Part shown: piece after piece, positions 16,458-51,386 of the stretch | Numbering within the stretch: position 1 is the stretch's first letter | Layout: every line of letters begins with the position of its first letter | Assembly: GCA_000165345.1 (NCBI GenBank) | Contig: CM000435.1 | Location: 320,001-384,000, forward strand | DNA: 64,000 bases | Direction: 5' to 3' | Notes under the pieces: model-generated | Database searches by the model: none | Told to the model about the DNA's origin: nothing | The model's input: the letters and a program-made list of their open reading frames with translations, nothing else | Position numbers and translations under genes: made by a program

Positions 16458-16778
16458 GATTTTGAAATTTCTATAGGTTTGAGCATTATTTGAAGAAAAG
16501 AAAGAGAAAGAAATAAATAAAGGAAAAAAGATTCTTGATAATGTTATCTAAGTGAGCTTCAGTTGAGTATTATTATCAAGTATTCAAACGATTAAGGAAA
16601 ACAAACTTAATAATGCAGAAAATTTATAAGAAAAAAAAAATCGAATTTATTAATAAAAATTTAATGTAGCAAAGAAAGAAAATGATTGCATGCATGCGCT
16701 AATTTTGCATGCAAATACACGTAATATAAATTAACAGAGGATGATATGTAATCCCAATCAGATAAAATTGGAAAAAAA

Positions 16779-16829
<51 letters not shown>

Positions 16830-16938
16830 CTTTCGTTCTTAAATAATGATTGCGTACATTAATTTTAATTATATTGCTGTGAAATTGATTGAATGAATAA
16901 ATAATAATAATAACATTAATATTAATATATACTTTGAA

Positions 16939-19900: not shown

Positions 19901-21390
19901 AATCTTGCAGAAAATCCTTCAGCATCTGTTAAATATACCGGACATGGATGAGTTCCAACAAGTTTATCAATTGGAACAGGAAAATCTGATTCCTTAAGTT
20001 CAACAGCATCTTCCAAATCAATGATTTTAAGATCTTTGTAGAAATCTATATCAAGTATATCTTTATATGTGAGATTATAAACATTATTTTCAGTTTTGAA
20101 TTGTTTTGAAATATTTACCAAAATATTTCCTTGATGAAAATCACAATGAATTCTAAAAGATCTAAATCTTTTCCACTTTCCTCTTGAAAAATCTTCTAAT
20201 TCTTCTGGATAGAATGATGTTCCTCCTCTATGAAATAGATCCAAAAGATATAATAATCTTCTATAAAGATTTACTGAGAAAATTATTGTTTTATCAGTAT
20301 AATTATTAATCCAAATATTTATAGAATTCTCCAAAAGTCTTGCTTTAGATTCTACATTAATCTTCTCATCTGACCTTAATGAAGGGAACTTGGAGTCATA
20401 GATTCGAATACTTTCTTCTAAGATTGCATTTACTCTATTTTTTAAATAATTTAAGAGATTTGGATAATCAATAAGTTCTGAAATTATTGAAGAAATTGCA
20501 GGACCATCAATAAACTCCATTAATAGAACATTTCTTGAAATCATTTTTCGATTTGGTTGTAAGAATACGCTATATATGGATGGATGAAGCTTAGATTTAG
20601 AAGCACCATATGTACTTGAGGCCATTCTAGAGTAAATGATCAACTCATGATTAAAATGGTAAAGAAAGTCGTTGGTTCTTCCATCAACTTTTGCTACAAT
20701 TTTCAAAGGAAACTTCTTGGCTTTGTTTGAATGAAGGCATCTCACTCTTAGAGATGATTTCTTTCCGAGTTCATAGACACACCCAGTAAATAGTTCAAAT
20801 CTCTCTTTCTTTTCCTTTTCCTCCTTTTCCTTTCCCTCATCTTTTCCCTCTTCTTTTCCCTCCTTCCCTTCCTCTTCTTTACTTTTCTTCCCCTCATCAC
20901 TCTCCTTCCCCTCATCCCTCCCCTCCCCCTCCTCCTCATCCACCTCCTCCACAGGACTCTTTATCATTGCAAAAATTGTCGAAGCTTCCTTTCCTTGAGA
21001 AGATACCAAAAGCTCTCCAGTCGATGAAACTTTTGGACAATCAATTATGCCCGAAAATTCATTACAAAAATCTTTAAGTCTTAATATACTACATTTCTTA
21101 TAAACCTGACTCAAATGTTTATACCTCTTGTAAAAAACCATTGGAGCATACCAAGTATTTTCTTGTCCTTCTGGAATAAAACATAAATTAATTCGCCTCA
21201 ACTTATCCATTGTTACCACTAAACCATCATCTTGAAAACTATTATTCTTTTCCTCTAGTAATACCTCATTCTCGCTCCCATGAAGCCCAAATAACCTTAT
21301 ACTCCCCTCTGCATAAATAGATCTCGTGATCGGGCACAATACCAAGCAAAATGAGTACACCAAATGAAGTATTTTCTTTCTAATCCTCAT
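16939..21390 (-). CDS. Large (1483 aa) signal-peptide protein with a choline-kinase/aminoglycoside-phosphotransferase-like kinase fold and an acidic EGKE low-complexity insert
   Basis: ATG at 21390; the N-terminus MRIRKKILHLVYSFCLVLCPITRSIYAEG looks like a signal peptide. A kinase-like core is present: KIVAKVDGR (beta3 Lys), LLMEFIDGPAI (hinge), IHCDFHQGNILVN (Brenner HxDxxxxN catalytic loop) and KIIDLEDA (ChoK/APH-type 'IDxE' metal-binding motif in place of DFG). The low-complexity segment is EEGKEGKEEGKDEGKEKEEKEKKE. Confidence 0.55.
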   Translation of the reverse strand: MRIRKKILHLVYSFCLVLCPITRSIYAEGSIRLFGLHGSENEVLLEEKNNSFQDDGLVVTMDKLRRINLCFIPEGQENTWYAPMVFYKRYKHLSQVYKKCSILRLKDFCNEFSGIIDCPKVSSTGELLVSSQGKEASTIFAMIKSPVEEVDEEEGEGRDEGKESDEGKKSKEEEGKEGKEEGKDEGKEKEEKEKKERFELFTGCVYELGKKSSLRVRCLHSNKAKKFPLKIVAKVDGRTNDFLYHFNHELIIYSRMASSTYGASKSKLHPSIYSVFLQPNRKMISRNVLLMEFIDGPAISSIISELIDYPNLLNYLKNRVNAILEESIRIYDSKFPSLRSDEKINVESKARLLENSINIWINNYTDKTIIFSVNLYRRLLYLLDLFHRGGTSFYPEELEDFSRGKWKRFRSFRIHCDFHQGNILVNISKQFKTENNVYNLTYKDILDIDFYKDLKIIDLEDAVELKESDFPVPIDKLVGTHPCPVYLTDAEGFSARLLSNIILISNTLSQTLNTLQDFFLKETKNLIFGNNIVSDWITSSNPDRISEFSDYSFKLKDSILKKLKIHSDNWDRYVDLITNDEVLKPCTSYYHLKYGRKLPPKSQLPCSWLSNILFSKKVCHYLHLSHADSDPSLLKSEDSVIEAELRELFRVSNLTKCHIEENEALNISINNVSSTIQEFLPVVTKINETYWGEWSALFNNQTFDRKFTNINKNFDNTNNEIGITVNSNSKKISDHNSLPCSNHLSVINSKSNMSRNGNKDKILKYDKNKLIFGSIDVPKEKNPSNVLDWVEVNQLVVTENEENNKNLIGKNHSKSEMILQNDTFSKEFDKILIDLMGLAALQRIISFCLKFSSEIDCDNVSSSKIIRDGPISSYIVRTIQNNNSTQLKNSSSDFIQFLDPCVLYSNETNLSNLETQNSMGWLCSKQTQDESLTNETVFKIIVDGRLFLNMNMTFVNQSNNTFAFNDVLWYFGINDTSKYTYKFNNEAVSMIEKHKKDALEFWKLESKIRNMDNIILNPEIDLKDDISLKTVPVLPKMFIFHSKLNTRKVHARVISTLEKEELFVTDKNLYFLPLSEKRSDLSKQISSIVQTGLLSENVFFMINPSNHRVSNLVSKVTNFQNEVFSMVWISYPTLVLSIIESILRSHSYQILISYRALEFLQRFRFKRDYDISIIRTPKNTYSANIQMKNDSKPVICNFSLEKIIIQPYGNNEILKILGELNKFTLYNTSGAKFMKISQVLSDFCSSEKLKNKSDIQSLIKDLVIPSLDPLFTLNNAVDTLSKIKYNSSIEVRRSNWFVKHVCSFISQKLNEINKSNISNEALPTLIQSLNFIIQLKNKIFLNSEFSKCINIDSNNNSNIEFNNNCTVGEYISISEMISSELLDLFIKERNIFKNLTSVNLAQELISYTNDHLQIPPPSQDPPFGGLGHLYKKDYNESYTGSENPNTNSTILYNRNKTIAFDVKWPIIANISDLISSEKNLTKF

Positions 21391-21480
21391 TTTTGCTTAT
21401 TTTGCCCTCTTTTACTCACTTTATCATTTCAAAAATATTTACTCCTTTTCTTTCTTTTCCTAATTTTTATGATCCATGCT

Positions 21481-21513
21481 TTTCCCGCGCATCCTTGTTC
21501 AATTTTCCCGCCC
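21481..21513. promoter_or_regulatory. Two tandem E2F-type sites (TTTCCCGCGC ... TTTTCCCGCCC) ~90-125 bp upstream of the 21390 start
   Basis: Direct reading gives 'tttcccgcgcatccttgttcaattttcccgcccg'. This matches the E2F/DP consensus TTTSSCGC known as an over-represented Cryptosporidium upstream motif. Confidence 0.5.
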
Positions 21514-22217
21514 GTTATTAAATACCTTGGATCTTCATGTTAAAAAATTAGTAAAAGAAATATAATATAAACAAGTTCATTATTTTTGTGTTTAATTTAT
21601 TGATATCATAGATTGAAATGTTTTTTCTTTTTTTTAATTTTTCTTTCTTTTCCTTTTTCTTATTCTGATAAGGATTTGTTTATAATGTTTCGAGATCAAA
21701 AGTTCTAATTACTATTAAGATAAAAATGAAAGAATTAGGGAGAAAAAAGAGTATATAGAAACAGGAAGAGGATATTTTAATATTTTCATTGGAGTTTTGA
21801 TTAATGTGTTTTTTTTCTTTGTTTTTCCCTTTATATAGATATTAATTTGTTGTTATATAAATAGTTGGAAGAAGCGAAAAAAAAAAAAGAACAAGAAAAA
21901 AGAAAACAAGAAAATAATGATAATTAGATGTATGAAATTACCTTTACTTTAGAAATTTTGGTTTTCATTTTTTTATTTATTTTTTATTTATTTTTTTGAC
22001 TTCACACGTATTAATATAATAAGTACCGCAATTGTGTGGTAGTTAAATTGTAATCCTCTCAGCGCTGGACTTTGTGTAAATTAAAGTGAGTTTTGCACTT
22101 TTAAAAGAAAAGAAAATTCACAATTATAAAGAATTGTATTAAAAGTGAATAAGTACAGTGATAATATATAAAGAGTGTGAAAGAAATTTGTATATATTTT
22201 TGTATATAATAGAAAGA

Positions 22218-24232
22218 ATGATTGGGTCAAGAAAATCTAAGGAAGAGTTATACTATAAGATTTCTTTAGTAACAACAATACTTATATTCTGGATTTGTTC
22301 AAGATCTGTAGGTAAGTTGAAATAAAAATAGAAATAAAATAAAACAAAACAAAACAATTCAAATCCCAAATCAACTCTTTAATTTATATATTTGTAGTTT
22401 TATCTATATCTCTCACAACAATATTCTTAGTTTTGTCTTATATTGGAAATAAGTTTGTTTTTGGAACAAAATCTAAATATGAAGAAGATTTACCAAGATT
22501 GATTTCAGATAATGTAATTTTGAAAAAAATCTATGAATTTATTACAAATGGAATTCTTGTTAATTTTGTTTTATCTATTATATATATTACATTATATTTC
22601 ACATTAAGATCAGAAATTAAAGGAATAGAAGTTATTCACAGAGGCATTTTTGATCATTTAGCTCCAAAACTTGCAGAACATTCAAGAAATCTAATAGAAT
22701 CTGGTGAAGGAAAATTTGAAGTTATCTCAAGTAATAGAAATTTTGATGGTATTAGTTTAATTATACCAATTAGAGATGAAGATGAATTTATTAGTAAAAC
22801 AATTTCTTTTACTCTTGGTTTAAATAATAAGAACTTACTTAAAGAAATCATTGTTGTTGATGATTGCTCTAAGAGAGAAGTTTCTGATTTACTTAATAAA
22901 GAACTTCCAAGTTCTTATTTAAAATATATTAAAGTTATTAGATTAGACAAATGTGAAGGTTTAATTAGAAGTCGAATTCTTGGTGCTGATGCTTCTAAAT
23001 CTAGTGTAATAGTATTTATGGATGGTCATTGTAGGCCTAAAGAAAATTGGATTGAACCTTTAATTAATAGACTTAAAGAAAAACCAAAAGCTATAGTTTG
23101 TCCAATGATTGAAGATATAGATAGATATACTTGGAAAGATTTAGGTACTTTTGGATTAAAAATGATGTTTGATTGGAATTTTGAATTTAATTGGTATGAA
23201 GATTTTACTGATGTAATTCCAATAGCATCAGGAGGATTATATGCAATAACAAGAGAATGGTGGGAAGAATCTGGTAAATATGATCCAGGAATGTTAGAAT
23301 GGGGAGGAGAGAATATTGAACAATCAATAAGAATTTGGAGATGTGGAGGAGAAATAGTAGCAGAAAAGAAGAGTAGAGTAGGACATATATTTAAAAGAGA
23401 TCCAAAACCTAATCCAGAGAATAAATTAGTTTTACAAGTACAAAGAAATCAGAAAAGAGCTGCAATGGTTTGGTTAGATAAGAAAAGATATAAATACTTT
23501 GAGACAATTCATGATGTTGTGAAAAGTTTGAATGAAACTCAGAGTGGTGTAGATTTGGAACAAAGACATAGCATTAAAGAAAGATTAAAATGTAAACCAT
23601 TTTCTTGGTATGTTGATAAATTTAGAGCTTCATTTGATAGAGGTGGTTTGCTATTGGATAACTTTAGACATTTTAAACATAGAAAGAGTGGACTTTGTTT
23701 AACAGCTTCTTTAAATGAAGTAGTTACTGGAACAGAAGATAAAGCAGTAGTATTTAAAGAATGTAATGAAAGAGATGATACTCAGAAGTGGAATGTAATA
23801 TTAGGAAGGAGATTAATATTAAATAGAAGAGTAGGATTAGGATGTCTCACAAGGGGACCAAGTAATGTAGTAGAGAATTCAATTTTAAGAGTAGTTCCTT
23901 GTGAATTTAAGAAAGCTTTAGAAGGTTATAATGACTCACAATATTGGAACATAGATGCTAATGATGATTTATTATTTGATCATGGTTATGAAGATTTATC
24001 TCCAATGGAATCTTCAAAGCTTAGAAACTCACTAAGATTGTTTAACAGAATTAATAGTATTCCATTTAGTAATGATGGGAATGATAGAATTTCTGTGAAT
24101 GGAGAATATGCTTTTAATCCATCAAATAGATGTGTCACAAATTTGAATGATAAAGCTGTAATGAAGAGTTGTCCACATGAAGAAAATGAGGACTATATAT
24201 TTGACCCAATAAAGATGGGGAAGTTTATGTAG
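22218..24232 (+). CDS. UDP-GalNAc:polypeptide N-acetylgalactosaminyltransferase (GT27 catalytic domain + C-terminal ricin-B lectin), two-exon model: exon 1 22218..22311, intron 22312..22397, exon 2 22398..24232
   Basis: The catalytic domain has the GT-A DxH-type region (VVDDCS...FMDGHC) and the pp-GalNAc-T Gal/GalNAc-T motif WGGENIEQSIRIWRCGG. A C-terminal beta-trefoil lectin region has Cys pairs and QxW-like repeats (QKWNV, QYWNI). The long ORF has no in-frame ATG before the catalytic domain (the track start 22433 is TTG). An upstream ATG at 22218 encodes MIGSRKSKEELYYKISLVTTILIFWICSRSV, a short tail plus hydrophobic anchor expected for a type II Golgi transferase. It ends at a consensus donor AG|GTAAGT (22312). 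An AT-rich 86-nt intron ends TTTGTAG| at 22397 and restores the downstream frame exactly (phase 1). Confidence 0.75.
22312..22397 (+). other. Predicted 86-nt spliceosomal intron (GTAAGT...TTTGTAG) near the 5' end of the ppGalNAc-T gene
   Basis: The donor gtaagt and the acceptor after a T-rich tract preserve phase between the exon-1 ATG ORF and the catalytic-domain ORF. Confidence 0.6.
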
Positions 24233-24540
24233 AGGAGGTGGGAGGAGTGGATTGGCAGGACTGGGAGAAGAGGATGAGAGAACGAGAGGAAGAGAGGAGA
24301 GGACTGGGAGAAGAGGAGTGGGAAAATAGAGGACGAAAGAAAAGGACGAGAGAATGAGAGGAGAGGACTGAGAGAAGAGGAGTGGGAAAATAGAGGACGA
24401 AAGAAGAGGACGAGAGAATGAGAGGAGAGGACTGGGAGAAGAGGACGAGAGAACGAGAGGAAGAGAGGAGAGGACGAGAGAATGAGAGGAGTACAAAAAC
24501 AGGAAACGAAAAGGAAAGGAAATGAATAGAGGAGTGATAA
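24233..24540. repeat. GA-rich (polypurine on + strand) tandem minisatellite, ~4-5 copies of a ~60-65 bp unit
   Basis: Reiterated 'gagaggagaggactgggagaagaggagtgggaaaatagaggacgaaagaa(g/a)aggacgagagaatgagag' units lie immediately 3' of the ppGalNAc-T stop. The minus-strand ORFs 24122..24496 and 24225..24554 (SSLPLVLSSS..., low complexity) are artefacts of this repeat. Confidence 0.85.
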
Positions 24541-24621
24541 AAGCCGTGAGACAATAGAATTTTAGATATTAAATTAAGATGAGCTAAAATTACTCTTTAT
24601 TAGACAATTCTCTTTGTTTGT

Positions 24622-26184
24622 TTAATTTGCATAAGTTATTGGAAAAAATGACATAAAAGGACAAAAGTCTTTATTTCCACAATTATTTTTAGTTTTAGGT
24701 GAAATCATGGGAGATGAATTTGAATAATAACTTGAAGATTTTGAAACAACCCATGAATGTTTACTTGGATGAATAGTAAAGAAAGGATGTTTTAAAGCAT
24801 CTTTTGGATGTATTCTAAATTTGTAATCCAAAGTAAGAAGTTTTGAAAGTAAATCAAGAGCTTGAACAGTAACTAAATCTTGATTTTCTTGAGTAATTAA
24901 GAAATCAAAAGTTCTTGGATCAGTAAAAATTGGACTTGTTGAATTAAAGATTTTTTTGGTTCTTTTAAGATAAGAAAAAGTAATATCATCAGAAATTGTT
25001 CCATTATATTTATTAGATATAGAAATAATATTATCTCCTCCAAGTAATGAAGCAATTTTAACAATTTGGTCATTATTGTCCCAACCTGGAAAAAGTACAT
25101 CAGGACTTAATGAATTCTTAAGAAAAATACCAACAAATGTTTTTGGATATTTTGTAAATACTCTAGTAAAATAATTGGTCTTTAAAGTACCTAATCTGAA
25201 AAGCATTTGTGAGAATAAACAACCTACTGACCAAGAATCCACAGAATAATCATAATTTCTGATTCCTAAAAGAAGTTCTGGTGCTTTATAATATTTGGAA
25301 GCAACTCTTGGACTAAAATCAGGATCATCTTTTGAATAATATTCTGCTAATCCCCAATCAATAATTTTTAAAGATTCTTTATTTATATCAATTACAATAT
25401 TTTGTGGTTTAATATCTCTATGAAATACTCCTAAAGAATTTGCATAAGAAAGTCCTTGTAATAATTGTCTCATGTAATTTTGAAGATCTATATATGTAAG
25501 TTTTGGAAGAAGTGAATAAAATTGTTCATTATTAATATATTCCATAACAAGTCCAATATGTTTTTTAACACTAATAGATTTTTGATTCAAATTTTTTATT
25601 GGATTATGATATTTAACAATATCTAAAAGTTTTATAATCGAATTTTTCCCTTGTATTTGATCATATAATTGTGAATTTTCTAATAATAATGTTTGATTAA
25701 CATGATTATCAGAATAACCATTAAGTAATTTAAGTATAGAAACTTCTCGAATAATTTTCCATTCTTGTACATTCTTTAATTCTTTTAAAGCAACAGGAAA
25801 ACCTCTAAGAGAACTAATTTGATGATCTGTTAAATTAAGAAAATAAGGATCAATAACAAGTGTTTCTTCTCCAATCTTATTTTTTGTTTCTGGACTTAAA
25901 TCAATTTTCCATGCAAAAAATACATTTGAATATCTTCCTGTTCCTATAGTATTTCCTTTAATATAAAAATTTTTTCTTGAAAGTCGACTCATTTCTAAAA
26001 TATTTTCCAAAGAAGAAAAATCTTCATGACTTTCTACAATATTTCGAGGATGATTTGATTTAGGTATTTTATTATCTTTTTCTTTATTAGTATAATTTTC
26101 ATTATAAGAATGAGAAAGAATAGAAAAAGAAAGTTTTTGAAGAATAACTAACAAAATGTATAATATTAGTAAAATCCTAAACAT
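24622..26184 (-). CDS. Casein kinase 2 alpha-like Ser/Thr protein kinase carrying an N-terminal signal peptide/anchor and ~100-aa N-terminal extension
   Basis: ATG at 26184. The N-terminus MFRILLILYILLVILQKLSFSILSHS is hydrophobic. Kinase motifs match CK2alpha: GTGRYSNVF (Gly loop), VALKELK, HRDIKPQNIVID (CK2: HRDVKPHNVMID), DWGLAEYY (CK2: DWGLAEFY), RVASKYYKAPELLL (CK2: RVASRYFKGPELLV), GWDNNDQIVKIASLLG (CK2: GHDNYDQLVRIAKVLG) and ENQDLVTVQALDLLSKLLTLDYKFRIHPKDALKHPFF (CK2: [37 protein letters not shown]). Confidence 0.75.
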   Translation of the reverse strand: MFRILLILYILLVILQKLSFSILSHSYNENYTNKEKDNKIPKSNHPRNIVESHEDFSSLENILEMSRLSRKNFYIKGNTIGTGRYSNVFFAWKIDLSPETKNKIGEETLVIDPYFLNLTDHQISSLRGFPVALKELKNVQEWKIIREVSILKLLNGYSDNHVNQTLLLENSQLYDQIQGKNSIIKLLDIVKYHNPIKNLNQKSISVKKHIGLVMEYINNEQFYSLLPKLTYIDLQNYMRQLLQGLSYANSLGVFHRDIKPQNIVIDINKESLKIIDWGLAEYYSKDDPDFSPRVASKYYKAPELLLGIRNYDYSVDSWSVGCLFSQMLFRLGTLKTNYFTRVFTKYPKTFVGIFLKNSLSPDVLFPGWDNNDQIVKIASLLGGDNIISISNKYNGTISDDITFSYLKRTKKIFNSTSPIFTDPRTFDFLITQENQDLVTVQALDLLSKLLTLDYKFRIHPKDALKHPFFTIHPSKHSWVVSKSSSYYSNSSPMISPKTKNNCGNKDFCPFMSFFPITYAN

Positions 26185-26326
26185 AATGACTATGGGATCT
26201 CCTTTACATCATTGATTTCTTTCTCCTCTTTAAAAAAAAAGATTCCTATTTTCTCAGTTATATTATTATTATTATTATTATTTTTCATTACTTATAATTT
26301 GAATTGTATGAATATAAAAATGAGGA

Positions 26327-26338
26327 CTTTTGGCGCCT
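26327..26338. promoter_or_regulatory. E2F-like TTTTGGCGCC motif in the 190-bp spacer upstream of the CK2-like kinase start
   Basis: 'gaggacttttggcgcctacatt' lies between 26184 (the start of the minus-strand gene) and 26374. Confidence 0.4.
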
Positions 26339-26373
26339 ACATTTGTATAAAGGTTTTTTACAAGTCAAAAGCA

Positions 26374-28836
26374 TTAAATTGCATTTTTGCTACAACAAGA
26401 AGAAAAAAAGAATTTTTGAGTTTTTAATTTGGTTTTCTCCTTTCTATTTGAAGATAAAAGAGCAGTTTCTGTGTGATTACTTATGGTATTTTGAGAATTT
26501 TTCTTTTGATAAGTTTTTTTACAGTTTATTTGAACTTTTTCTTTTACAAGTTTATTTTTTTTACCTTTATTTTTAGACCAACTGATAATTTTTTCTCTAG
26601 AATGTTTTTTGGCGCCAAAAAATTTGGTATTAGATTTTCTGGAATCTTGTTTTTCTGAGTTAGACAACTTATATTTAGAATTTAAGACTAGTTCATTAGA
26701 GGAAGGGAGGGAGTTTGAAGAAAAATGAGAAGAAGAGTCTTTGAGATCAAGTTGATTGAATTCAATTAATGAGTACTCTAAGCATTTGTGCATTTTTCCC
26801 ACAGAAACCTTTTTATTCATGAGGGAAGACTCATCATTGCAATATTTTTGTTCTTGTTCTTGTTCTTGTTCTGATTTATAAAATGTAGATGAGAAGAGAG
26901 AATTGGAAGATTTGGAGTTTTGTGATTGATTATAATGGTTATTAATGGTTTTTTGGTTATTTTCCGAGTCTTTAAGATATGTCTTGGAGGACTTATTGGA
27001 AGAAATTGGAATATTTTGAATAGTAATAGTACTTCTTTTTCTACTAAAATATCTACTAATGGAAACACTAGTGCTGATTTTCTTGATTAGATTTTGATTT
27101 GACAAAGATTGAAACTTAGTAGGAACTTTAGCTTTATTTTCATGACTGAAAAAATGATTAACATAATTAAATATACTTTGTATATAATATTTAGAATTGT
27201 TATAGTTTTGTTGAACACCAGAGATCATTTGTATAAATATTCCTAAAGAATTAGGTCTCTTAGCTTTAAGTAAAATAAAGGGATGTTTTAAAAGAAAATT
27301 AGCATTTTTTCTTTGATTTGGATCTTTTGTCAAACAAGAGTCAATAAAATCCCAGAATTCTGGTGAAAACAAACCTTTAATTTCTTCTCTCACAGTCTTT
27401 TGAGGAGGAGGAGATCTTAAAATATATTCCAATAATTCTTCTAAAGAATCAAAATTTGGCCAAGGGATCCTCCCAAAAGCTAGTTCTAATACAGTTATTC
27501 CAAGAGACCAAATATCAGAAGCTCCTGGTTCTCCAGTTCCAATTCCAATTCCAGCCCCAGTTTTAGTTTGAATTCTAGTTCCAGACCCCAAAATAATCTC
27601 AGGAGCCATCCAAAAAGGACTTCCTAGTATTTCTTGGTCATTAGAAAAAGGATACATAATATCGTTAACTTTAGTGATTGATTCAGAATCTTCCTGACGA
27701 TTACTTTTTATTTCAGACTTAATTTTCCTAGAAACTCCAAAGTCTGCCAATTTTGCTACACAATTTTCAGTTAGTAAGATATTAGCACTCTTTATATCAT
27801 TATGAAGAATATAGTTTTGAGAATTGGAATGATTTCCATCTTTTCGTCCATGAATTCTTATTAATGCCTTTAATACGTCCTGAGTAACTGAAGCAAGCAA
27901 CTCTTCTGGAAAACTCCCATATTTACTATATAAACCATAAAGTGATCCCCCTTCTGCATATTCCATTAATATGTATAAAAAAGAATCTGAGGAAAAAGTC
28001 ACATAATATTTCAGAATTTGTTCGCAATCTTGTAATTCTGACATTATACTTGTTTCCTTTCTAGCTGTAGCTAGTGGGTCCTCCAATTCTGCTGTGTCAT
28101 TTGCTTCTAAATCCACAATCTTTATAGCTAACTTCTTTCCAACTCCTCCTCCTCCTCCTCCTTTCCTAGCCCATCCTGTTCCTTTTGTTCTTGTTTTAGC
28201 TAAAGATATAGATGCTCTTGGCTCCAGTTTTTCCAGTATCTCCTTTATATCTGAGTCAGTTATCTCAACTGTGATGGAATTTCTACTTTTCTTTTTTCTT
28301 GGACTACATATATCTGCTAATACCACAATCCCATAAGCTCCCATTCCAAGTATATTTGAGATTGAAAAAACTACCAATCTCTGTTCATTACTGCTAATAC
28401 TATTACTATTGCAAATACCTTTATTCCCCTCTTCCTCCTGATTATAGACCACTTCAATCAAATTCCCCACTTTAAATAGTTCTCTCATTCTTCCTCTCTT
28501 TTCTTCTTGGCTCTTTTCTTTTTTTCTTTCGGGAACTACAAATTCAAAAGATTCCAAAGAAGATTTGCCATTTTCTATATAACTTTTTTCTTGTGCTTTC
28601 ACGGATTTTTCTATAGTTTTCCTCTCTCCTTCTACAATCTTCCCGTTTTCTTCTAAAACCTTCCTGTTTTCTTCTAAAGTTTTTTCCTCTTCTTCTAGAA
28701 CTTGCCCCACTCCTTTCTCCTCTTCTTCTAAAGTATTCTCAGCTTTCTCTACTCCTTTTCCATCTTCTCCTATTGTTTCATAGTCATCTTTCTTACTTTC
28801 AACCCCCAAATCTTTATTCTCTCTTGTCAAAGACAT
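26374..28836 (-). CDS. STE20/PAK-family-like Ser/Thr protein kinase (820 aa) with acidic repeat N-terminus and Ser/Asn-rich C-terminal tail
   Basis: ATG at 28836. It has the motifs GMGAYGIVVLA, LAIKIV, HNDIKSANILLTENCVAKLADFGVS and GSPFWMAPEIILG (the STE20 signature GTPxWMAPE). An EEEEK(T/G)LEEN-type repeat lies near the N-terminus. Confidence 0.7.
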   Translation of the reverse strand: MSLTRENKDLGVESKKDDYETIGEDGKGVEKAENTLEEEEKGVGQVLEEEEKTLEENRKVLEENGKIVEGERKTIEKSVKAQEKSYIENGKSSLESFEFVVPERKKEKSQEEKRGRMRELFKVGNLIEVVYNQEEEGNKGICNSNSISSNEQRLVVFSISNILGMGAYGIVVLADICSPRKKKSRNSITVEITDSDIKEILEKLEPRASISLAKTRTKGTGWARKGGGGGGVGKKLAIKIVDLEANDTAELEDPLATARKETSIMSELQDCEQILKYYVTFSSDSFLYILMEYAEGGSLYGLYSKYGSFPEELLASVTQDVLKALIRIHGRKDGNHSNSQNYILHNDIKSANILLTENCVAKLADFGVSRKIKSEIKSNRQEDSESITKVNDIMYPFSNDQEILGSPFWMAPEIILGSGTRIQTKTGAGIGIGTGEPGASDIWSLGITVLELAFGRIPWPNFDSLEELLEYILRSPPPQKTVREEIKGLFSPEFWDFIDSCLTKDPNQRKNANFLLKHPFILLKAKRPNSLGIFIQMISGVQQNYNNSKYYIQSIFNYVNHFFSHENKAKVPTKFQSLSNQNLIKKISTSVSISRYFSRKRSTITIQNIPISSNKSSKTYLKDSENNQKTINNHYNQSQNSKSSNSLFSSTFYKSEQEQEQEQKYCNDESSLMNKKVSVGKMHKCLEYSLIEFNQLDLKDSSSHFSSNSLPSSNELVLNSKYKLSNSEKQDSRKSNTKFFGAKKHSREKIISWSKNKGKKNKLVKEKVQINCKKTYQKKNSQNTISNHTETALLSSNRKEKTKLKTQKFFFSSCCSKNAI
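26605..26622. promoter_or_regulatory. Perfect palindromic E2F-type site TTTTTTGGCGCCAAAAAA embedded in the 3' coding region of the STE20-like kinase gene
   Basis: It is seen directly and encodes FFGAKK on the minus strand. It lies ~420 bp upstream of the start of the next gene. Confidence 0.3.
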
Positions 28837-40652: not shown

Positions 40653-41234
40653 CTAGTTATTTTCAAATTCACTTTCTATTTGTGAATCGTCAGTCTCCAG
40701 AGATTCAATTTCAAGGGATTCATCATCCTCTTGCTCAACTGCTTGACTATTTGAGGATATATATAAAGAAGTGGTATATACCATAGCCCAGCATTCAGTG
40801 GTTTCAGAAAAATTAGAGTCACTATAATTTCTAGTAATCTCAGAAGCAGCAGTCAATACTTCCTGAGTATCTGGAACAGGATCACTACAAACCTCAACTA
40901 ACTTTTGAATAGATTTATCCATTTGTTCGCCACTACATTCCTTTTCAAAGGATTCCTGTAATGACGCACATGCTTCATAAATTTGCTCTGGATTTTGAAC
41001 TTCCGAAGTTTCATTAGACAAATCAGCCCCCTCAAGTTCAACAACTTTCTCTGATGAAGGCTTTTGGCTTTCTTGATTATTGTCTTCTGCTTGTTTGTGG
41101 TCATTTTCCACAAGCTTAACAATATCTTCACCTTCTATTTCTTCAGCTCGACAAGAAAGAATTAGTAAGCCAAATATGAATACTAAAGTAGCAATGAAGA
41201 ACCACTTGAAACCCTTATTATAAATGTACGGCAT
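40653..41234 (-). CDS. Small (193 aa) acidic secreted protein, unknown function
   Basis: ATG at 41234. MPYIYNKGFKWFFIATLVFIFGLLILSCRAEE is a signal peptide. The rest is rich in E/D/S/Q and ends in the acidic tail DDESLEIESLETDDSQIESEFENN. Confidence 0.6.
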   Translation of the reverse strand: MPYIYNKGFKWFFIATLVFIFGLLILSCRAEEIEGEDIVKLVENDHKQAEDNNQESQKPSSEKVVELEGADLSNETSEVQNPEQIYEACASLQESFEKECSGEQMDKSIQKLVEVCSDPVPDTQEVLTAASEITRNYSDSNFSETTECWAMVYTTSLYISSNSQAVEQEDDESLEIESLETDDSQIESEFENN

Positions 41235-41354: not shown

Positions 41355-42371
41355 TTATGCCTCATTTAATAAAGTTGAAGGCTCCAATTTACACTTATTG
41401 ATACGTTGTTCAAGATTGTAAAGTCTCTTAATAGCGGTGTAAAGTTCAGAAATATCATCCCAATTAAAAAAGAAACAAGTAATGCCCGAAGTGACGGTAT
41501 TGAAGCATCTAATAATAGTGGCCCTCCCCCCTATGGTGATGTCTTTTCTAACAATAGCTGGAATTAAAAGTATAGTTGGTAGAAATCCAACAAGACTCCC
41601 CAAGCTTTCGCTGATTAAGCTGTATCTAAAAGAGTACAAATAAATATCACTATGAATCAACTTGAGCTCATCAACAAGAGTATCTTCTATTAGTGACAAG
41701 TTAAGTCTTGGAATACCTTCTTCACCCAAAATAAGCTGTTTTCTAAATTCAGCTTCAACAATCTCCTTTCGCATGATTTTAGAGCTCATTTTCCTGGATG
41801 TGAAATAAACCCCAAGAATCGAAACTGAAATCGATATAGCAAGATAAGAAATAAGAGAATATTCAAATCCACTTGGAAACGGTGGAATTCCTGAAACTTT
41901 CCTACTATGTTCAATCAAAATTGGAATGTGAACCAGACTTCTTGAAATAGAAATCACAACTTTAAAGAAAAGATTCAAAATAAGCTTCAAAACCTGAAGA
42001 GTATCTTCCTGGATTCTTTGAGACACTCCTTCCACTCCTTTAATGAATCTCCAATTATCAAATAAGTATTTTGACTCATAATTACGCCAATTAAGAAGTA
42101 TTACTGTTAGGAAGAAATTACTTAATACTCTAAATACACAGAGGAATATGAGGAATAATGGCAGATTTAGCATTTTTTCCCTTATTTCATCCTCATAACT
42201 CTCCCCAGGTTTTGAGTTGAACGAACTGACCAAAAGATTGTATATTTCAGAGAACCATTTTGTCACTTTCAAATGAAGCTTTGAATATTGCACATTCAGA
42301 ATGATTAACAAGAAACAGTAAAACCAAGTACTTGCAGAGTACCTACTGGAGAAAAGAAATTTCCTAATCAT
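41355..42371 (-). CDS. SbmA/BacA-like (ABCD-type transmembrane-domain-only) membrane protein, paralogue A
   Basis: The track start 42434 is TTG; the first ATG is at 42371 (MIRKFLFSS...). It is ~338 aa with several hydrophobic helices. The conserved loop WRNYESKYLFDNWRFIKGVEGVSQRIQEDTLQV resembles the ABCD/SbmA 'NPDQR(L/I)xxD' region. The EAEFRKQL and C-terminal IKRLYNLEQRI stretches parallel the ABCD1 TMD E(A/G)EFR and helix-6 regions. There is no Walker A/B or ABC signature. Confidence 0.45.
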   Translation of the reverse strand: MIRKFLFSSRYSASTWFYCFLLIILNVQYSKLHLKVTKWFSEIYNLLVSSFNSKPGESYEDEIREKMLNLPLFLIFLCVFRVLSNFFLTVILLNWRNYESKYLFDNWRFIKGVEGVSQRIQEDTLQVLKLILNLFFKVVISISRSLVHIPILIEHSRKVSGIPPFPSGFEYSLISYLAISISVSILGVYFTSRKMSSKIMRKEIVEAEFRKQLILGEEGIPRLNLSLIEDTLVDELKLIHSDIYLYSFRYSLISESLGSLVGFLPTILLIPAIVRKDITIGGRATIIRCFNTVTSGITCFFFNWDDISELYTAIKRLYNLEQRINKCKLEPSTLLNEA

Positions 42372-42519
42372 ATTTCCATTTTTTTGTCTTAATGGCAACT
42401 TCGATTTACAAAATGTCAAGTCGTATAGCGCCAACTATTGTTTCAAGTATGTCTAATCAGTTAACTTCTAGACAAGAGACTACAGAGAGAAGAGATAGAA
42501 GGGTTTTAAAGTAGCAGTA

Positions 42520-43521
42520 ATGATTCTATTCAGTGGCCTCAGCAGAAGATCTCTTATCAAGTTGTTTCTCTTTTTGGCTGCAATTTCCGCATGTTCAGTA
42601 CTTCTGTTGTACTTGGAGTTTTCTGGGAACTCTCAACTTAAAACATTTGGAGATGTGTTACAAGCAGCAGTTAAAGATAGGTCAAGTGTTAGTGCTTCAG
42701 ACCTGTACACTTCGTTTTTTGCATTGATTTCTTACAAGCTAGCCGTTGTATTTTTGAAGTCGGTATCTTCATTTCTGTCCAAGAAGAGTATTTTCTTTTG
42801 GAGACTGCAACTAACAGAGTATTTCTTAGAGAACTGGGAGAATATTTACTTAATTGAGGGAGTGTCTCAGAGGATTCAAGAAGATACTATGAGATATTGT
42901 AGACTTTTTGAGAAGTTTTCAATTTTTGTTGTACAGGATTTATTCAAGCTTTTTATATACTTGCCTTTATTACTTGATCTAAGTAAGCATATAACAAGAA
43001 CATGGTTTATACCCAATACAAGGCATTTATTACTTGTTTTGATTATAATTAACTCCATAATTGGAACTTCCATTATTATTTTCCCAAGTAAATACTTATC
43101 TAGGCTCGTTTATAATATAGATAAGGAAGAAGCTGCATTTAGAAAGAACTTGGTTTTATTTGAACTTGAAGAAAGAGACTTTTCTAACTTCGACTTTGAT
43201 GGGAATTACATTAGTGTGGATAATACTCACAGAAGCTACTACAGAAGGTATTATTTTATTAAAATCCTCCAATTATTGCATTTTCGCCTGTCGATGATCA
43301 CTTATTGGTTGTTTGCTCATCCATCAATGGTACCTCCTTATACTCTAGGTCTTCTTAAACAGACAATGCATGCATTTGATGAAGTCTCATCAGTATTTAA
43401 CTTTGTGGTATCTCATTTCAAAAGCTTAGTAGAGTACATTGCAGTTTTTTTGAGATTAAATTTAATGGTTAAGCAAACTATAAAAGCTAAAGAAACCGAT
43501 AAATCTGGGATTTATCATTAA
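42520..43521 (+). CDS. SbmA/BacA-like (ABCD-type transmembrane-domain-only) membrane protein, paralogue B
   Basis: ATG at 42520. It shares the block ...NW(E/R)N.....EGVSQRIQEDT with the divergently oriented neighbour, plus EEAAFRKNL and LKQTMHAFDEVSSVFNFVVSHFKSL. It is 333 aa, with no ATPase domain. Confidence 0.45.
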   Translation: MILFSGLSRRSLIKLFLFLAAISACSVLLLYLEFSGNSQLKTFGDVLQAAVKDRSSVSASDLYTSFFALISYKLAVVFLKSVSSFLSKKSIFFWRLQLTEYFLENWENIYLIEGVSQRIQEDTMRYCRLFEKFSIFVVQDLFKLFIYLPLLLDLSKHITRTWFIPNTRHLLLVLIIINSIIGTSIIIFPSKYLSRLVYNIDKEEAAFRKNLVLFELEERDFSNFDFDGNYISVDNTHRSYYRRYYFIKILQLLHFRLSMITYWLFAHPSMVPPYTLGLLKQTMHAFDEVSSVFNFVVSHFKSLVEYIAVFLRLNLMVKQTIKAKETDKSGIYH

Positions 43522-43647: not shown

Positions 43648-45840
43648 TTACTGAACTTCAAAGAAGATTGAAATATCATCTGACTCATTTGCAAAGAACT
43701 GAACACAGGAAATATTTCCATCTGGCCCATATCCTCCTTTTGAGATTTTGGTTACCTCCATTTTATCAATAGAAAGAAGCAAAAATTGCCCAAGATCTTT
43801 AACACTAATAACCCCTCTTCCAGAGCTAGAAGTGGCACTACTGATATAATGGCCCTTATAAATTGGCTCATTCTCTTTTATTGCAGAAGTTCTAAATACA
43901 TTAATATTCCCAGAACTGGTGTATTCAATTTGAAAAGAAAAACCTTCCTTTTTTGTATATATATCAACTTTCAACGCGCCATTGGAAAATCCTCCAATGA
44001 AATGAAGTACGCCCCCAACTGGAGAACCAGTGGAAGCTGAAGTAAAACAAAGCCTGTTGCTGTCGCATACAGTAGAAATATAAGAACCTCGGTGTTGCTC
44101 AAGAACGCAACTTTTCCTTATTGGTTGGAATTCCGAAGAAATCTTATCAATATTATCACCGTTAATATTCACAGAATAATCGCCCAATGTTTTACTTACT
44201 TTGGTACTTTTGACATTTTCTAAATTGTTAAAGTAGTTTCTACGTAATCCACCAGCATTTTCATCTTTAAGCACAAAAGTATCATTTTGTGGTATATTTT
44301 CATAATCAACTTTATCAAGATTGGTTAAATTGGTTATCAAAACCGCACTTTTTCCATTTACTCCTACTAAAAACTCGGCAACATCTGCATTGTTATCAAA
44401 GCTAATCATTGTTTTCTTTTTATCTTCAGTGGAATCTGAAGCCACTCTAACAGCTACAAAAGTTTGTCCATGGTTATCTTTTGACTGAGAATTACTTGAC
44501 TTAAGCACAGGAAGTATTCCGTCGATTGAGCATGTTCCACTTCCTGAATAAGAATACCTTGTGCAGGGCCTTGTTGGAAGCACAGTGGATGTAGGTTTAC
44601 GGTGAAGCCCTTCAAAGGTTATTCCATATGGAATTTCCCCATTTGGAATAACGATTGGGTCAAATGCATAGAAGCCATTGACTGATATTGTGACAAACAA
44701 AGAAGTAAAGACTAATTTAATTGCATAACTTTGGAATCCATAGCTTTGTAAAGGGAAATATCCTCCCTTAGATCTTATAATATCAGTGCCGCTTGTCCCT
44801 TTAAGAAACAGTCCATTATCATTAATAATGAGATGGAAAAGAATTAATCCTGAATTTGAATTTAATATCACGTGAGTTGTTGATGGCATCTTTACAGATT
44901 TACTTGATACTGATCCCGGTATTCCCAATAATATTTGGCTACCAGGAATTAAAGTACTTTTTGGGATTATAACATTTGATGAAAGACAAGTCTTTGAGTA
45001 TGGAGATATATTCAAGTTTGATATACTAGAACCAGTTACTGGTACACTTAGAACGCAGTTTTCCATTTCGTTATTTTCTATAAATGGAATTACCGAAATT
45101 CTTACATTTTCAAGTCCAGATGTTTGGATCTTGGAAATTCTAATAGGCTTTTCTGCAAGGTTAATATTTAAAATATTATATACCAAGTTATTTAAAGTGA
45201 AGGAAATTGTTGTATTTGTCAAAACCATTACAAAAGTCATCCTACCAATCCCTAAAGTAGAATTTGTTGCATCATTAGCAATCGTAAAATCATCTTGGCA
45301 CCCTTTCAACTCTAAAGTTGTTATTCCATCATTTACTTGAGTTCCATTCACTAATGAACTTATTTTTACGATCGCACTATTCTCTTTAGAGCCCAACTTG
45401 AATGAAATTAGTTCCGAATCATCTTCTGATTTGAATTCATAACTCATTCCAAATTTGTATGAATCTCCAACAATTGTTGTTGTGAATCTAGACGTAATTG
45501 GAACCAACAACGTGCTATTCGAATTATCACAGTTAATTGGCAAAGTTCTATTAAAGCATGAATCTTCTGTAAAATTCATATTTACTGGGATAATTTCTGG
45601 ATTGCTCAACTTGTTTCCCAAATTCTCTTCTGAGCTTTCAGTAATAGAAGTTGAATTCATTGTTCCATTCGAACTTGCCACCTCCTTGATTGGCTCTGCG
45701 CCACCATTTTTGCTTATGTCGCTATTCAGTGACAGATCAGATTCAATTGTTGTACTGACTTGTTGTGATTTAACCTCTACATTCAAGCAAATCGCTAATA
45801 TCAAAAATCCCAAACCTCTTAAAATTTTTCCCTGGTTCAT
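43648..45840 (-). CDS. Secreted 730-aa protein of unknown function (beta-rich, Ser/Thr/Asn-rich)
   Basis: ATG at 45840. MNQGKILRGLGFLILAICLNVEVKSQQ is a signal peptide. The long ORF has typical codon usage, and I recognise no motif. Confidence 0.6.
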   Translation of the reverse strand: MNQGKILRGLGFLILAICLNVEVKSQQVSTTIESDLSLNSDISKNGGAEPIKEVASSNGTMNSTSITESSEENLGNKLSNPEIIPVNMNFTEDSCFNRTLPINCDNSNSTLLVPITSRFTTTIVGDSYKFGMSYEFKSEDDSELISFKLGSKENSAIVKISSLVNGTQVNDGITTLELKGCQDDFTIANDATNSTLGIGRMTFVMVLTNTTISFTLNNLVYNILNINLAEKPIRISKIQTSGLENVRISVIPFIENNEMENCVLSVPVTGSSISNLNISPYSKTCLSSNVIIPKSTLIPGSQILLGIPGSVSSKSVKMPSTTHVILNSNSGLILFHLIINDNGLFLKGTSGTDIIRSKGGYFPLQSYGFQSYAIKLVFTSLFVTISVNGFYAFDPIVIPNGEIPYGITFEGLHRKPTSTVLPTRPCTRYSYSGSGTCSIDGILPVLKSSNSQSKDNHGQTFVAVRVASDSTEDKKKTMISFDNNADVAEFLVGVNGKSAVLITNLTNLDKVDYENIPQNDTFVLKDENAGGLRRNYFNNLENVKSTKVSKTLGDYSVNINGDNIDKISSEFQPIRKSCVLEQHRGSYISTVCDSNRLCFTSASTGSPVGGVLHFIGGFSNGALKVDIYTKKEGFSFQIEYTSSGNINVFRTSAIKENEPIYKGHYISSATSSSGRGVISVKDLGQFLLLSIDKMEVTKISKGGYGPDGNISCVQFFANESDDISIFFEVQ

Positions 45841-49853: not shown

Positions 49854-51245
49854 TTATTCACTCTTTGCTTTGCTATTGTTCTTTGAAAAGAGTCTTGTGA
49901 ATGACGTGATTATACGTAATATGAAGTATAAGAATACGATGACAATCTGGATACCCCAAATGATTGAGACGATTATTATGCATAATCTACCAAATATCTG
50001 TCTTGCTGATTTTTCAACAATCATTTGAGGAATTTTAGAAATAGCCTCGATATGATTTTCATTACTTTCATTATCAAATTTGAAAATCTTCTTTAGCTTA
50101 ATATCTCCATTCAAATCCCTAATAGTGGCCTTAACTATGATTCCTGAACATTCTTTAGAATCTGTACATAAGTACTCAAAGTCAAGTTTTCCATAGTTTT
50201 CTCTAATAAAGTAATTTGGAGACTTGTCATTCAAAGACCAGCCCGTAAAGATTGGTAATGTTGTAGAAATAACAAAACTATCCAGAATTCGGTCACTTAC
50301 GCTATGAGTCATTCCACTTGAAGTAATTTCAACTAATGACTTCTGAGAATCGTCAGACTCAAAGATTTGACCCCAGTGGACATCCCCTGATAAGAAGAAT
50401 AGTCCTTTTGGTTTTGTCTTCTTAATAAGCGAAAACAATCTTTCTCTAGACTTTGGAAAATGTCCCCAACCTTCAACAATTGGGTATTGTGTGGTAACTT
50501 GTATAGATGAGATAATAATATTAGCAAGAGCCTTAGAGTTACTAAGTTCTTTCTCTAACCAATCCCATTGCTCCTTTCCCAACATATCTCCTTGATATGA
50601 ATGCCCATAGCCAAAAATAGATGCAAAGAAACGAAGAGATGCTGCAAAAATACTGGTAAATGGAGTATCCAAATGAGCGAAAGATAAAATACCATATCTT
50701 TCGTGAACGTAATAATTATCTCTATGATACCTTGTGTCCAAAATAATTACTTTAATTTGCTTTCCAGGAGGACCAAAAGTATGTGATGAGTAAACACCCT
50801 TCCTATTTCTTCTTGGAGAATCCTTAGGAAGAGAAATAAAGTCTAAAAATAGTTGCTGACTCTCGTCTTTAAAAGCAACGTATTTTCCACCATCGTTAAC
50901 ACCATAATCGTGATCGTCCCAAGTACCATCAACAAATAAACCAGTCTTCAAAAGGTCTCTATAAAATGAATTATTACTTTGAACAAGGTATCCCTTACTT
51001 ACACATACTGGAGACCCACATTTAGTATAAACAGAATCTCCCATCCAAAATAAAGCATCTGGTTTGTCAGATTGAATTGCTTTCCAATACTCTTGGCTTA
51101 CATAATTACCTGATTTATCTTGTTTCTGGCCATCCACACAGCTGATAAACACTAAAGATTTCAAAAGTTTCTCAGAGCTGCTGTCTTCTGCAAATACTCC
51201 AATGAATAGATGAAAAGTCAAATATATCCAAAATATGCTCGGCAT
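49854..51245 (-). CDS. PhoD-like metallophosphatase (alkaline phosphatase D family) with signal peptide and C-terminal TM anchor
   Basis: The track start 51320 is GTG; the first ATG is at 51245 (MPSIFWIYLTFHLFIGVFA). Motifs are GDSVYT, WDDHDYGVNDGG and FLSGDVHWGQI (metallophosphoesterase His/Asp ligands). The C-terminus LCIIIVSIIWGIQIVIVFLYFILRII is hydrophobic. Confidence 0.7.
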   Translation of the reverse strand: MPSIFWIYLTFHLFIGVFAEDSSSEKLLKSLVFISCVDGQKQDKSGNYVSQEYWKAIQSDKPDALFWMGDSVYTKCGSPVCVSKGYLVQSNNSFYRDLLKTGLFVDGTWDDHDYGVNDGGKYVAFKDESQQLFLDFISLPKDSPRRNRKGVYSSHTFGPPGKQIKVIILDTRYHRDNYYVHERYGILSFAHLDTPFTSIFAASLRFFASIFGYGHSYQGDMLGKEQWDWLEKELSNSKALANIIISSIQVTTQYPIVEGWGHFPKSRERLFSLIKKTKPKGLFFLSGDVHWGQIFESDDSQKSLVEITSSGMTHSVSDRILDSFVISTTLPIFTGWSLNDKSPNYFIRENYGKLDFEYLCTDSKECSGIIVKATIRDLNGDIKLKKIFKFDNESNENHIEAISKIPQMIVEKSARQIFGRLCIIIVSIIWGIQIVIVFLYFILRIITSFTRLFSKNNSKAKSE

Positions 51246-51386
51246 TTTGTAACAAGTAACTTTGAGAGTGCTGAAGCCCGCGCAGTTTTTGGCAGGAAGC
51301 TCTGGACGGGATTTACCCACAGTGTGAGGAAGAAATAGAAAAGAAAGAGAGAATAACTCGGGAATTGAACAGTGAGCAATATATCG

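Follow-up and report, generated by a model that had tools for sequence, protein, structure and literature searches.

Head-to-head SbmA/BacA-like transporter genes of probable bacterial origin on chromosome 7 of Cryptosporidium parvum

The window analysed in this study is a stretch of 64,000 nucleotides from Cryptosporidium parvum (assembly GCA_000165345.1, contig CM000435.1, positions 320,001 to 384,000 of the forward strand), and coordinates are given as positions in the window unless a fetched locus is named. Two genes lie head to head within it. Gene A (41355..42371, minus strand) encodes a protein of 338 amino acids and gene B (42520..43521, plus strand) a protein of 333 amino acids; each has six transmembrane (TM) helices, lacks the N-terminal TM0 domain and is a short-form SbmA/BacA-like subunit from the family of SbmA-like peptide transporters (SLiPTs). 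SLiPTs are secondary transporters with a six-helix core like the membrane domain of a type IV ATP-binding cassette (ABC) exporter and with no ATPase. A and B are eukaryotic members of this known bacterial family with a previously unreported paired organisation. The layout was as stated in the original prediction, a reading of the letters of the window, which had placed two membrane proteins of about 335 residues on opposite strands with starts at 42371 and 42520. The open reading frame (ORF) of gene A as delimited mechanically extends to a TTG at 42434; the ATG at 42371 was taken as the real start because the N-termini of the orthologues read 'MI(R/K/T)..'.

By exact-sequence look-up, the product of gene A has the same sequence as C. 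parvum Iowa II EAK90193.1 (UniProt Q5CYQ8) and that of gene B the same as EAK90194.1 (Q5CYQ7); both flanking genes likewise have products identical to proteins of C. parvum Iowa II. In C. hominis the orthologues are named CHM_7g1380 (A) and CHM_7g1390 (B), and from this numbering A is probably cgd7_1380 and B cgd7_1390; B probably also corresponds to Chro.70165. The GC content of the two genes is 33-34%, and both GC and third-codon-position GC (GC3) are near those of the neighbouring genes, GC3 being slightly higher. Contamination or an assembly artefact was ruled out by the identity to C. parvum Iowa II proteins, the native-like composition and the synteny in the loci of six other species, and A and B are native genes of C. 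parvum chromosome 7. Since the proteins are already named 'SbmA protein' or 'SbmA/BacA-like family protein' at NCBI and UniProt, a free-standing SbmA-type pair is not a fresh identification here; SbmA identity had been annotated, and the paired organisation of the genes is the unreported part.

Both proteins were searched against Pfam. PF05992 (SbmA_BacA; gathering cut-off 24 bits) was matched strongly by A (E 1.8e-38, 133.2 bits, profile positions 7-314 of 315) and by B (E 4.6e-49, 168 bits, positions 30-308 of 315), so that this check, proposed with the original prediction, returned clear profile similarity. PF06472 (ABC_membrane_2; cut-off 24.4 bits) had no match in A and reached 18.3 bits, under the cut-off, in B. 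With the NCBIfam models, A scored 112.5 bits against SbmA (NF008306, equivalog cut-off 492 bits) and 130.2 bits against the short form (NF009036, PRK12369, 326 residues, cut-off 385 bits); the corresponding scores of B were 161.4 and 157.2 bits. A profile of 14 Cryptosporidium sequences searched against the PDB retrieved E. coli SbmA (7p34 and 9g3d) at E ~1e-49, followed by Rv1819c at 6e-10. AlphaFold2 models, built from 74-sequence alignments, had predicted local distance difference test (pLDDT) scores of 85.1 (A) and 86.7 (B) and six long helices each. When these were compared with the PDB by Foldseek, the top five matches were all SbmA (E ~1e-11; TM-score up to 0.85 with A and 0.76 with B), and ABCD4, Rv1819c, ABCD1 and other type IV exporters followed at E 1e-5 to 1e-6. 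The resemblance to the transmembrane domains (TMDs) of both ABCD transporters and SbmA/BacA, as originally described, therefore stands for ABCD at the level of the fold, while the closest relative is clearly SbmA and not ABCD. Pfam, NCBIfam, the sequence search of the PDB and the fold search agree that A and B are TMD-only proteins of the SbmA/BacA family, as had been proposed, and membership of the SLiPT family at the Pfam level is regarded as virtually certain.

A and B are 32% identical over 126 amino acids by BLASTP (E 4e-14) and about 19-22% identical over the full length. The motif EGVSQRIQEDT is encoded at 42000..42032 (minus strand) in A, as residues 114-124, and at 42856..42888 (plus strand) in B, as residues 113-123; it is a family signature and holds the equivalents of SbmA R190 and E193. 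The codons of EAEFRK, residues 206-211 of A, are at 41739..41756 (minus strand), and those of EAAFRK, residues 204-209 of B, at 43129..43146 (plus strand); both motifs hold the equivalents of SbmA E276, R280 and K281. A shared block (E/K)GVSQRIQEDT following a WR...NW motif had been noted previously; the 11 residues proved identical, and the block opens with E in both proteins, the supposed K coming from the preceding 'IKGV' of A. The shared E(A)xFRK was found as described. Both blocks are signature motifs of the whole SbmA family (the bacterial consensus of the first is EGASQRIQEDT), and as family-wide signatures they prove homology and do not indicate a recent duplication.

Alignments of A and B to SbmA begin at residues 96-113 of the latter and are preceded by about 20 (A) and 36 (B) residues, and TM0a/TM0b have no counterpart; the N-terminal TM0 domain (TM0a/TM0b) is a described feature of SLiPTs (PMC8442886). 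A and B are thus members of the Pfam family and not of the canonical eight-helix SbmA/BacA type. A mixed-alignment search recovered more than 100 bacterial homologues of 323-345 amino acids with the same end-to-end architecture, from Neisseriaceae, Grimontia/Enterovibrio, Pelagibacteraceae, Kiloniella, Cellvibrionales and other groups. All four Cryptosporidium families (A, B and the families C and D described below) had a higher profile-profile score to the bacterial short-form profile than to the long-form profile, and the bacterial short form is probably the donor type.

A HMMER search of 1.84 billion representative proteins gave 1,282 relatives. Among the top matches, all those that could be named, or placed by gene context, were from Cryptosporidium or bacteria, and the named nearest bacterial ones were Pseudomonadota. 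As every identifiable eukaryotic match was from Cryptosporidium, 'apicomplexans', the host group given in the original prediction, is too broad. The best 80 loci in the GTDB one-genome-per-species data were from Pseudomonadota (79) and Aliarcobacter (1), in agreement with a 2025 survey of bacteria in which SbmA/BacA was confined to Pseudomonadota (PMC12003926). A bacterial origin of A and B is held to be probable, and an old horizontal acquisition from a proteobacterium is the most likely reading of it.

Orthologues of both A and B were identified in C. hominis, C. meleagridis, C. tyzzeri, chipmunk genotype I, C. ubiquitum, C. canis, C. felis, C. muris, C. andersoni and C. serpentis, and fragments of B-type genes in C. 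bovis and C. xiaoi. The head-to-head layout was found with the same flanking genes in all six loci examined from other species, those of C. muris and of a species from the Logan data included (seven species with that of the window), and synteny with the CRAL/TRIO, 730-amino-acid and 193-amino-acid neighbours is kept in C. muris, C. ubiquitum and C. canis. The immediate neighbours are a gene for an acidic protein of 193 amino acids (40653-41234, minus strand) and a gene for a protein of 730 amino acids (43648-45840, minus strand). Each of these proteins has a hydrophobic signal-like N-terminus and no Pfam domain, and both genes are syntenic with the A/B pair in C. muris, C. ubiquitum, C. canis and C. 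felis. In C. felis (GCA_014529505.1, locus L008), an intact orthologue of A (1254-2267, minus strand; 337 amino acids, MIGRFF...) lies head to head with the annotated B where no gene has been called; the C. felis A protein was not found in the protein search, though its ORF is intact in this assembly.

A second pair is present on chromosome 5. The third family, C (cgd5_3590), came from the search of representative proteins, and the fourth, D (340 amino acids, PF05992 E 3.7e-61), is encoded head to head with it. In C. parvum the C/D pair occupies 3594-4616 (minus strand) and 5001-6017 (plus strand) of the fetched chromosome 5 locus (L011), with a gap of 384 bp, and in C. muris 3396-4463 (minus strand) and 5001-6035 (plus strand) of the fetched locus (L012), with a gap of 537 bp. 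When loci were scanned with a family hidden Markov model (HMM), two SbmA-like ORFs were found in all seven fetched Cryptosporidium loci (five of the A/B pair and two of the C/D pair), and not one of 85 bacterial loci had a further SbmA-like gene at a distance of up to about 4 kb; the pairing is therefore a feature of Cryptosporidium and was not inherited from the donor. C. serpentis alone carries an extra C-family paralogue (P0083, KAL7066611.1), with Leu at the position of E378 and Arg at that of E203, which may be degenerating or specialised.

Residues of mechanistic importance were compared using the numbering of E. coli SbmA. The glutamate ladder of SbmA, known from mutagenesis and simulations of the E. 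coli protein, consists of E193, E203, E276, E287 and E378, mutated in a 2021 study (PMC8442886), to which a 2026 model added E269 (PMC13316013). The first proton site is proposed to be E203, the partners R190, R280 and K281 are essential, and Y116 serves as a periplasmic gate or as a substrate residue (PMC8442886; PMC13316013); the E203A substitution abolishes transport in E. coli (PMC8442886). E276, E287, E378, R190, R280, K281 and R385 are kept in all four Cryptosporidium families, apart from the Leu at E378 in the extra C. serpentis copy, and so is E193, which is Asp in one B orthologue. B and D retain E203, which A (L/S/R) and C (R/Q) have lost; E269 is kept in D and lost in A, B and C, and Y116 is kept in A and lost in B, C and D. 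D288 is lost in A and B and kept in C; in the D family it is Asp in C. muris only and Glu or Gly elsewhere.

In C. parvum A, Leu132 stands at the position of Glu203 and Ile at that of 269, and the ladder is incomplete. In C. parvum B, Glu131 is the equivalent of Glu203, with Val at 269, Gly at Y116 and Leu at D288, and by the 2021 definition no ladder residue is missing; A and B each have every Arg/Lys partner. D has the full ladder, E269 included. Each pair accordingly has one member that retains Glu203 (B, D) and one that lacks it (A, C); of the aligned bacterial sequences, 81% keep E203. Basic residues precede the first helix in A (R3, K4, R10) and in B (R9, R10, K14), which suggests a cytosolic N-terminus; with the N-terminus so placed, transport would run towards the cytosol.

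As originally predicted, neither protein has an ATPase domain. The ORFs of A and B end 120-126 bp from the adjacent gene, and no ABC ATPase is encoded in the window: Walker A and the ABC signature did not occur together in a six-frame motif scan of the 64 kb, and no ABC_tran domain was found in the eight neighbouring ORFs scanned against Pfam. The one Walker A of the window is that of an ATAD3-type AAA protein, and an isolated 'FSGGQ' falls within the gene of a class I tRNA synthetase. A nearby partner ATPase, for which the original prediction had suggested looking, was on these grounds excluded within the window, the extent of the search.

These results bear on two readings in which A and B derive from, or belong to, ABC transporters. 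A fold of the type IV ABC exporter TMD, the existence of bacterial split YddA operons (PMC13316013) and the 21 ABC family members reported for C. parvum (PMC10774378) would fit membrane halves of a split ABC transporter, energised as in YddA-type systems by an ATPase subunit encoded elsewhere. This is considered very improbable, given that no ABC ATPase gene lies within the window, that the best match in both sequence and fold is by far SbmA, and that SbmA lacks coupling helices and does not bind orphan nucleotide-binding domains (NBDs) (PMC8442886). In addition, TMDs of the YddA type are reported to lack the equivalents of both E203 and E287 (PMC13316013), whereas all A and B orthologues have E287 and, of these two families, B has E203.

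The second reading, raised in the original prediction for a peroxisomal ABCD gene, is that A and B are what is left of a eukaryotic ABCD half-transporter, peroxisomal or lysosomal, after the loss of its ATPase domain; it is scarcely credible. The distant fold similarity to ABCD1, ABCD3 and ABCD4 (E ~1e-5) and the weak PF06472 match of B (18.3 bits) are set against a PF06472 match that is absent in A and below the cut-off in B, compared with 133-168 bits for PF05992. The nearest relatives are bacterial SLiPTs, equal in length from end to end and Pseudomonadota where named, and SLiPT-specific glutamates are present (Glu287 in both proteins, Glu203 in B). Because the ORFs of A and B end where the bacterial short forms end, there is no room for a decayed ATPase domain; neither space nor sequence for a decayed NBD was found downstream of either gene.

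The start codons of A and B are separated by a gap of 148 bp (42372..42519, no strand assigned), which is a candidate bidirectional promoter. The gap measures 106 bp in C. muris, 162 bp in both C. ubiquitum and C. canis and 233 bp in C. felis, with a range of 98-233 bp over the six other loci. A conserved core at 42413..42449 comprises ATGTCAA (42413-42419), TAGCGCCA (42426-42433) and CAAGTA (42444-42449); the position of TAGCGCCA reads TGGCGCC in three other species. Four intestinal species (C. parvum, C. ubiquitum, C. canis and the Logan species) have ATGTCAA followed by T(A/G)GCGCCA in the same order and at similar spacing. The first three of these also have an exact CAAGTA, where the Logan species has CCAGTA. 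The C. felis gap retains GCGCCAA only, and no conserved element was visible in the A-B gap of C. muris. The GCGCC box resembles an E2F-type palindrome and is a candidate for an E2F-like element of the kind published among Cryptosporidium promoter motifs. The layout and the central element, conserved across species, fit the shared promoter that had been suggested from the 148-bp distance, and the conserved gap would fit shared regulation of A and B.

The C/D gap of C. parvum contains AATGTCAAA and the E2F-like CTCCCGCCAAGC. GGCGCC occurs ten times in the window; eight occurrences are outside long ORFs, mostly just upstream of gene starts (13161, 26332, 33133, 35816, 36042, 36846, 48835 and 49191), and two are inside ORFs (26611 and 39516). 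The motif is apparently a promoter element in general use in this genome.

The explanation that we somewhat favour overall is that A and B are native genes for SLiPT subunits of bacterial origin, which would form proton-coupled importers as A/B heterodimers. An ancestor of Cryptosporidium would have acquired the short, TM0-less form from Proteobacteria by horizontal transfer, and duplication would have given the four families A, B, C and D before the radiation of the genus. A and B would each provide one SLiPT subunit, A pairing with B. The dimer would be driven by a proton gradient relayed along the conserved glutamates, and would move peptides or other bulky hydrophilic solutes from outside, or from the lumen of an organelle, into the parasite cytosol, with one complete proton entry (Glu131 of B) and one degenerate half (Leu132 of A). 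Proton coupling is proposed by analogy; the transport direction, substrate and membrane location given here are likewise proposals.

Assembly of A with B as a heterodimer is taken, as a part of this explanation, to fall a little short of an even chance. It is favoured because the putative 148-bp promoter region is shared, because the head-to-head layout is kept across the genus and because the losses of key residues are complementary; it further rests on the second conserved pair, on the lack of pairs in bacteria and on the retention of both members of the A/B pair in every locus examined. The heterodimeric importer conceived of in the original prediction is made plausible by the complementary losses, the second pair and the unpaired bacterial genes, while the assembly itself is a proposal from the genes. 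A more elaborate proposal, which we consider rather unlikely, is that obligate asymmetric heterodimers (A/B from chromosome 7, C/D from chromosome 5) evolved from a homodimeric proteobacterial importer, each with one intact proton entry and one degenerate half like a secondary-transporter version of ABC exporters in which one ATP site is degenerate, and act at the parasite surface or feeder organelle, where they would import host or gut peptides as food or to neutralise antimicrobial peptides; they could then also serve as a Trojan-horse route for drugs.

The main rival to the heterodimer is that none forms: each paralogue would be a homodimer with its own substrate, membrane or stage, and the layout would be an old inverted duplication frozen in a compact, syntenic genome. 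All characterised SLiPTs are homodimeric (PMC8442886; PMC12912959), and synteny in Cryptosporidium is generally well kept here, the neighbouring genes included; yet two independent pairs are kept across the deepest split of the genus, compared with none in 85 bacterial loci. D, with its complete glutamate ladder, could work alone, and the Glu203-keeping B and D do not group in the trees described below; however, exactly one member of each pair lacks Glu203, so that homodimers of A or of C would be without the proposed proton entry on both sides, and A and B are complementary at Y116 and E203. On this evidence separate homodimers appear doubtful, if a little less so than the elaborate scheme above.

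In another reading, A (and C) would be degenerate, non-transporting subunits or pseudo-transporters with a regulatory or scaffolding role, and B and D alone would transport. Of the proton path proposed in PMC13316013, A and C do lack the equivalents of the first two steps, E203 and E269, and A is the most divergent family, with private changes at 11 bacterially conserved positions (5 in B and 2 in C). Against this, A keeps E193, E276, E287, E378, R190, R280, K281, R385 and Y116 in all 11 orthologues, from C. parvum to C. muris, and its predicted fold is intact, with the best TM-score to SbmA (0.85). Residue conservation and intact predicted fold argue for continued selection on the transport machinery, and this reading is judged improbable.

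Several findings weigh against the favoured explanation, or parts of it, and are gathered here. Phylogeny was addressed by neighbour-joining (NJ) bootstraps with three distance corrections. Families A, B, C and D were each recovered in 100% of bootstraps (C including the extra C. serpentis copy), and A grouped with C in 58-82%. B and D grouped in 0-1%, and the paired genes are not each other's closest paralogues; duplication of the pair as one unit is half supported by these groupings, for A-C and not for B-D. Strict monophyly of the Cryptosporidium families was recovered in 2-27% of bootstraps, the support rising if one to three AT-rich marine bacterial sequences were admitted, and one position only is a shared derived residue common to A, B and C. 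With monophyly this weak a single transfer is not shown; a single horizontal event is what we infer, the NJ trees fixing neither the number of transfers nor the order of the duplications. The phylogeny against bacterial SbmA, as suggested with the original prediction, thus resolved the four families and left the deeper order and the monophyly unsettled.

One of the sequences clustering repeatedly with the Cryptosporidium families in distance trees (P0038) is bacterial. It is a very AT-rich short form from a TARA marine metagenome scaffold (locus L003, 10001-10972) with sigma-54 and PmbA/TldD neighbours; the clustering is probably compositional or long-branch attraction, and a relative of the donor is possible. 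Another sequence that clustered with Cryptosporidium (P0102) is a Cryptosporidium D-family protein.

The remaining points against the favoured explanation concern function and distribution. Given the effect of E203A in E. coli, A and C might be inactive or coupled by a different mechanism. By their NCBIfam scores, A and B are homologues and not equivalogs of either bacterial model, and functional equivalence cannot be assumed from them. The TM0-less short form is not known to have a characterised member; a 'BclA-like' protein of Neisseriales, tested in PMC12003926, could be a short form but need not be one. No eukaryotic match outside Cryptosporidium was found among those identifiable, and other eukaryotes were not surveyed exhaustively. 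No functional study of Cryptosporidium SbmA/BacA-like proteins was found in the searchable literature. The one mention of such a protein is as one of 15 mRNA vaccine components, and the mixture that contained it was not among the two that lowered oocyst shedding.

In the searchable literature no paper mentions the C. parvum identifiers cgd7_1380, cgd7_1390 or cgd5_3590, a paper on transporters of the feeder organelle does not mention these genes, and nothing of use on a proton pump in the Cryptosporidium plasma membrane came from a literature search. Two recent surveys of the SbmA/BacA family covered bacteria only and no eukaryotes (PMC12003926; PMC13316013).

SLiPTs have so far been studied in bacteria only, where they determine how sensitive the cell is to peptide antibiotics, bleomycin, aminoglycosides and peptide-oligomer conjugates; chronic Brucella infection and rhizobial symbiosis both require them. 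Cryptosporidium, a major cause of diarrhoea in children, has hardly any biosynthetic capacity, and its transporters are for the most part poorly understood. Four conserved putative importers of bacterial type with no human counterpart are a plausible system for nutrient uptake or defence against peptides and a possible route for drug delivery. On the more elaborate proposal above, the heterodimers could offer an entry route for peptide-conjugated drugs, bleomycin-like compounds or peptide-morpholinos, and if the pairs prove to be asymmetric heterodimers they would be an example of a proton-coupled homodimer dividing its functions between two subunits. Peptide import, if it takes place, could act against host antimicrobial peptides as BacA does in Brucella and rhizobia. 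With genes derived from bacteria a familiar theme in Cryptosporidium, and with the basic identification present in public annotation already, the finding is more useful than surprising.

Other features of the window were recorded. A PhoD-like phosphatase domain (E 2.5e-15) is encoded in an ORF at 49854-51320 (minus strand); the family is mainly bacterial, and the ORF could be another gene of bacterial ancestry. The GC content is 26-29% over about 12 kb (16001-28000), compared with 32-37% elsewhere, with a strong swing in GC skew. At 13320-14007 (plus strand), two ORFs of 196 amino acids each overlap on the same strand in different frames, offset by 97 bases, which suggests a repetitive or low-complexity stretch.

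The system was compared with known ones. E. coli SbmA and A/B share PF05992, the fold of the six-helix core (TM-score 0.76-0.85), the lack of an ATPase and the motifs EGxSQRIQEDT and EAxxRK; of the five ladder glutamates mutated in 2021, four are present in A and all five in B, with the Arg/Lys partners. They differ in that identity is about 22-26%, that A and B lack TM0a/TM0b (~90 residues), that A lacks Glu203 and that B lacks Tyr116 and Asp288. SbmA is encoded by one gene of a bacterial host and forms a homodimer, whereas Cryptosporidium, a eukaryote, has four paralogue families in two head-to-head pairs. The bacterial short form (NF009036/PRK12369), which occurs in Neisseriaceae, Vibrionaceae, Pelagibacteraceae and other groups, is like A and B in its length (323-345 amino acids) and its TM0-less six-helix architecture from end to end; in contrast, its genes are single (none of 85 loci paired), 81% of the aligned sequences keep Glu203, and the Cryptosporidium proteins score under its equivalog cut-off.

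Mycobacterium BacA (Rv1819c), BclA and YddA have TMDs homologous to A and B (E 6e-10; fold E ~1e-5 to 1e-6) and a substrate range that overlaps that of SbmA (bleomycin, peptides, cobalamin), but are ATP-driven, with an ATPase domain that is fused or adjacent. Eukaryotic ABCD1-4 share with A and B the distant type IV exporter fold and the same Pfam clan; they have an ATPase domain, an identity of 10-15% and a profile (PF06472) whose cut-off A and B do not reach, and are not the nearest relatives. TM287/288, TmrAB and BmrCD are alike by analogy only, as two diverged paralogous halves side by side, one canonical and one degenerate. Their asymmetry is in the ATP sites, whereas that of A and B would be in the proton path of an assembly proposed from the genes.

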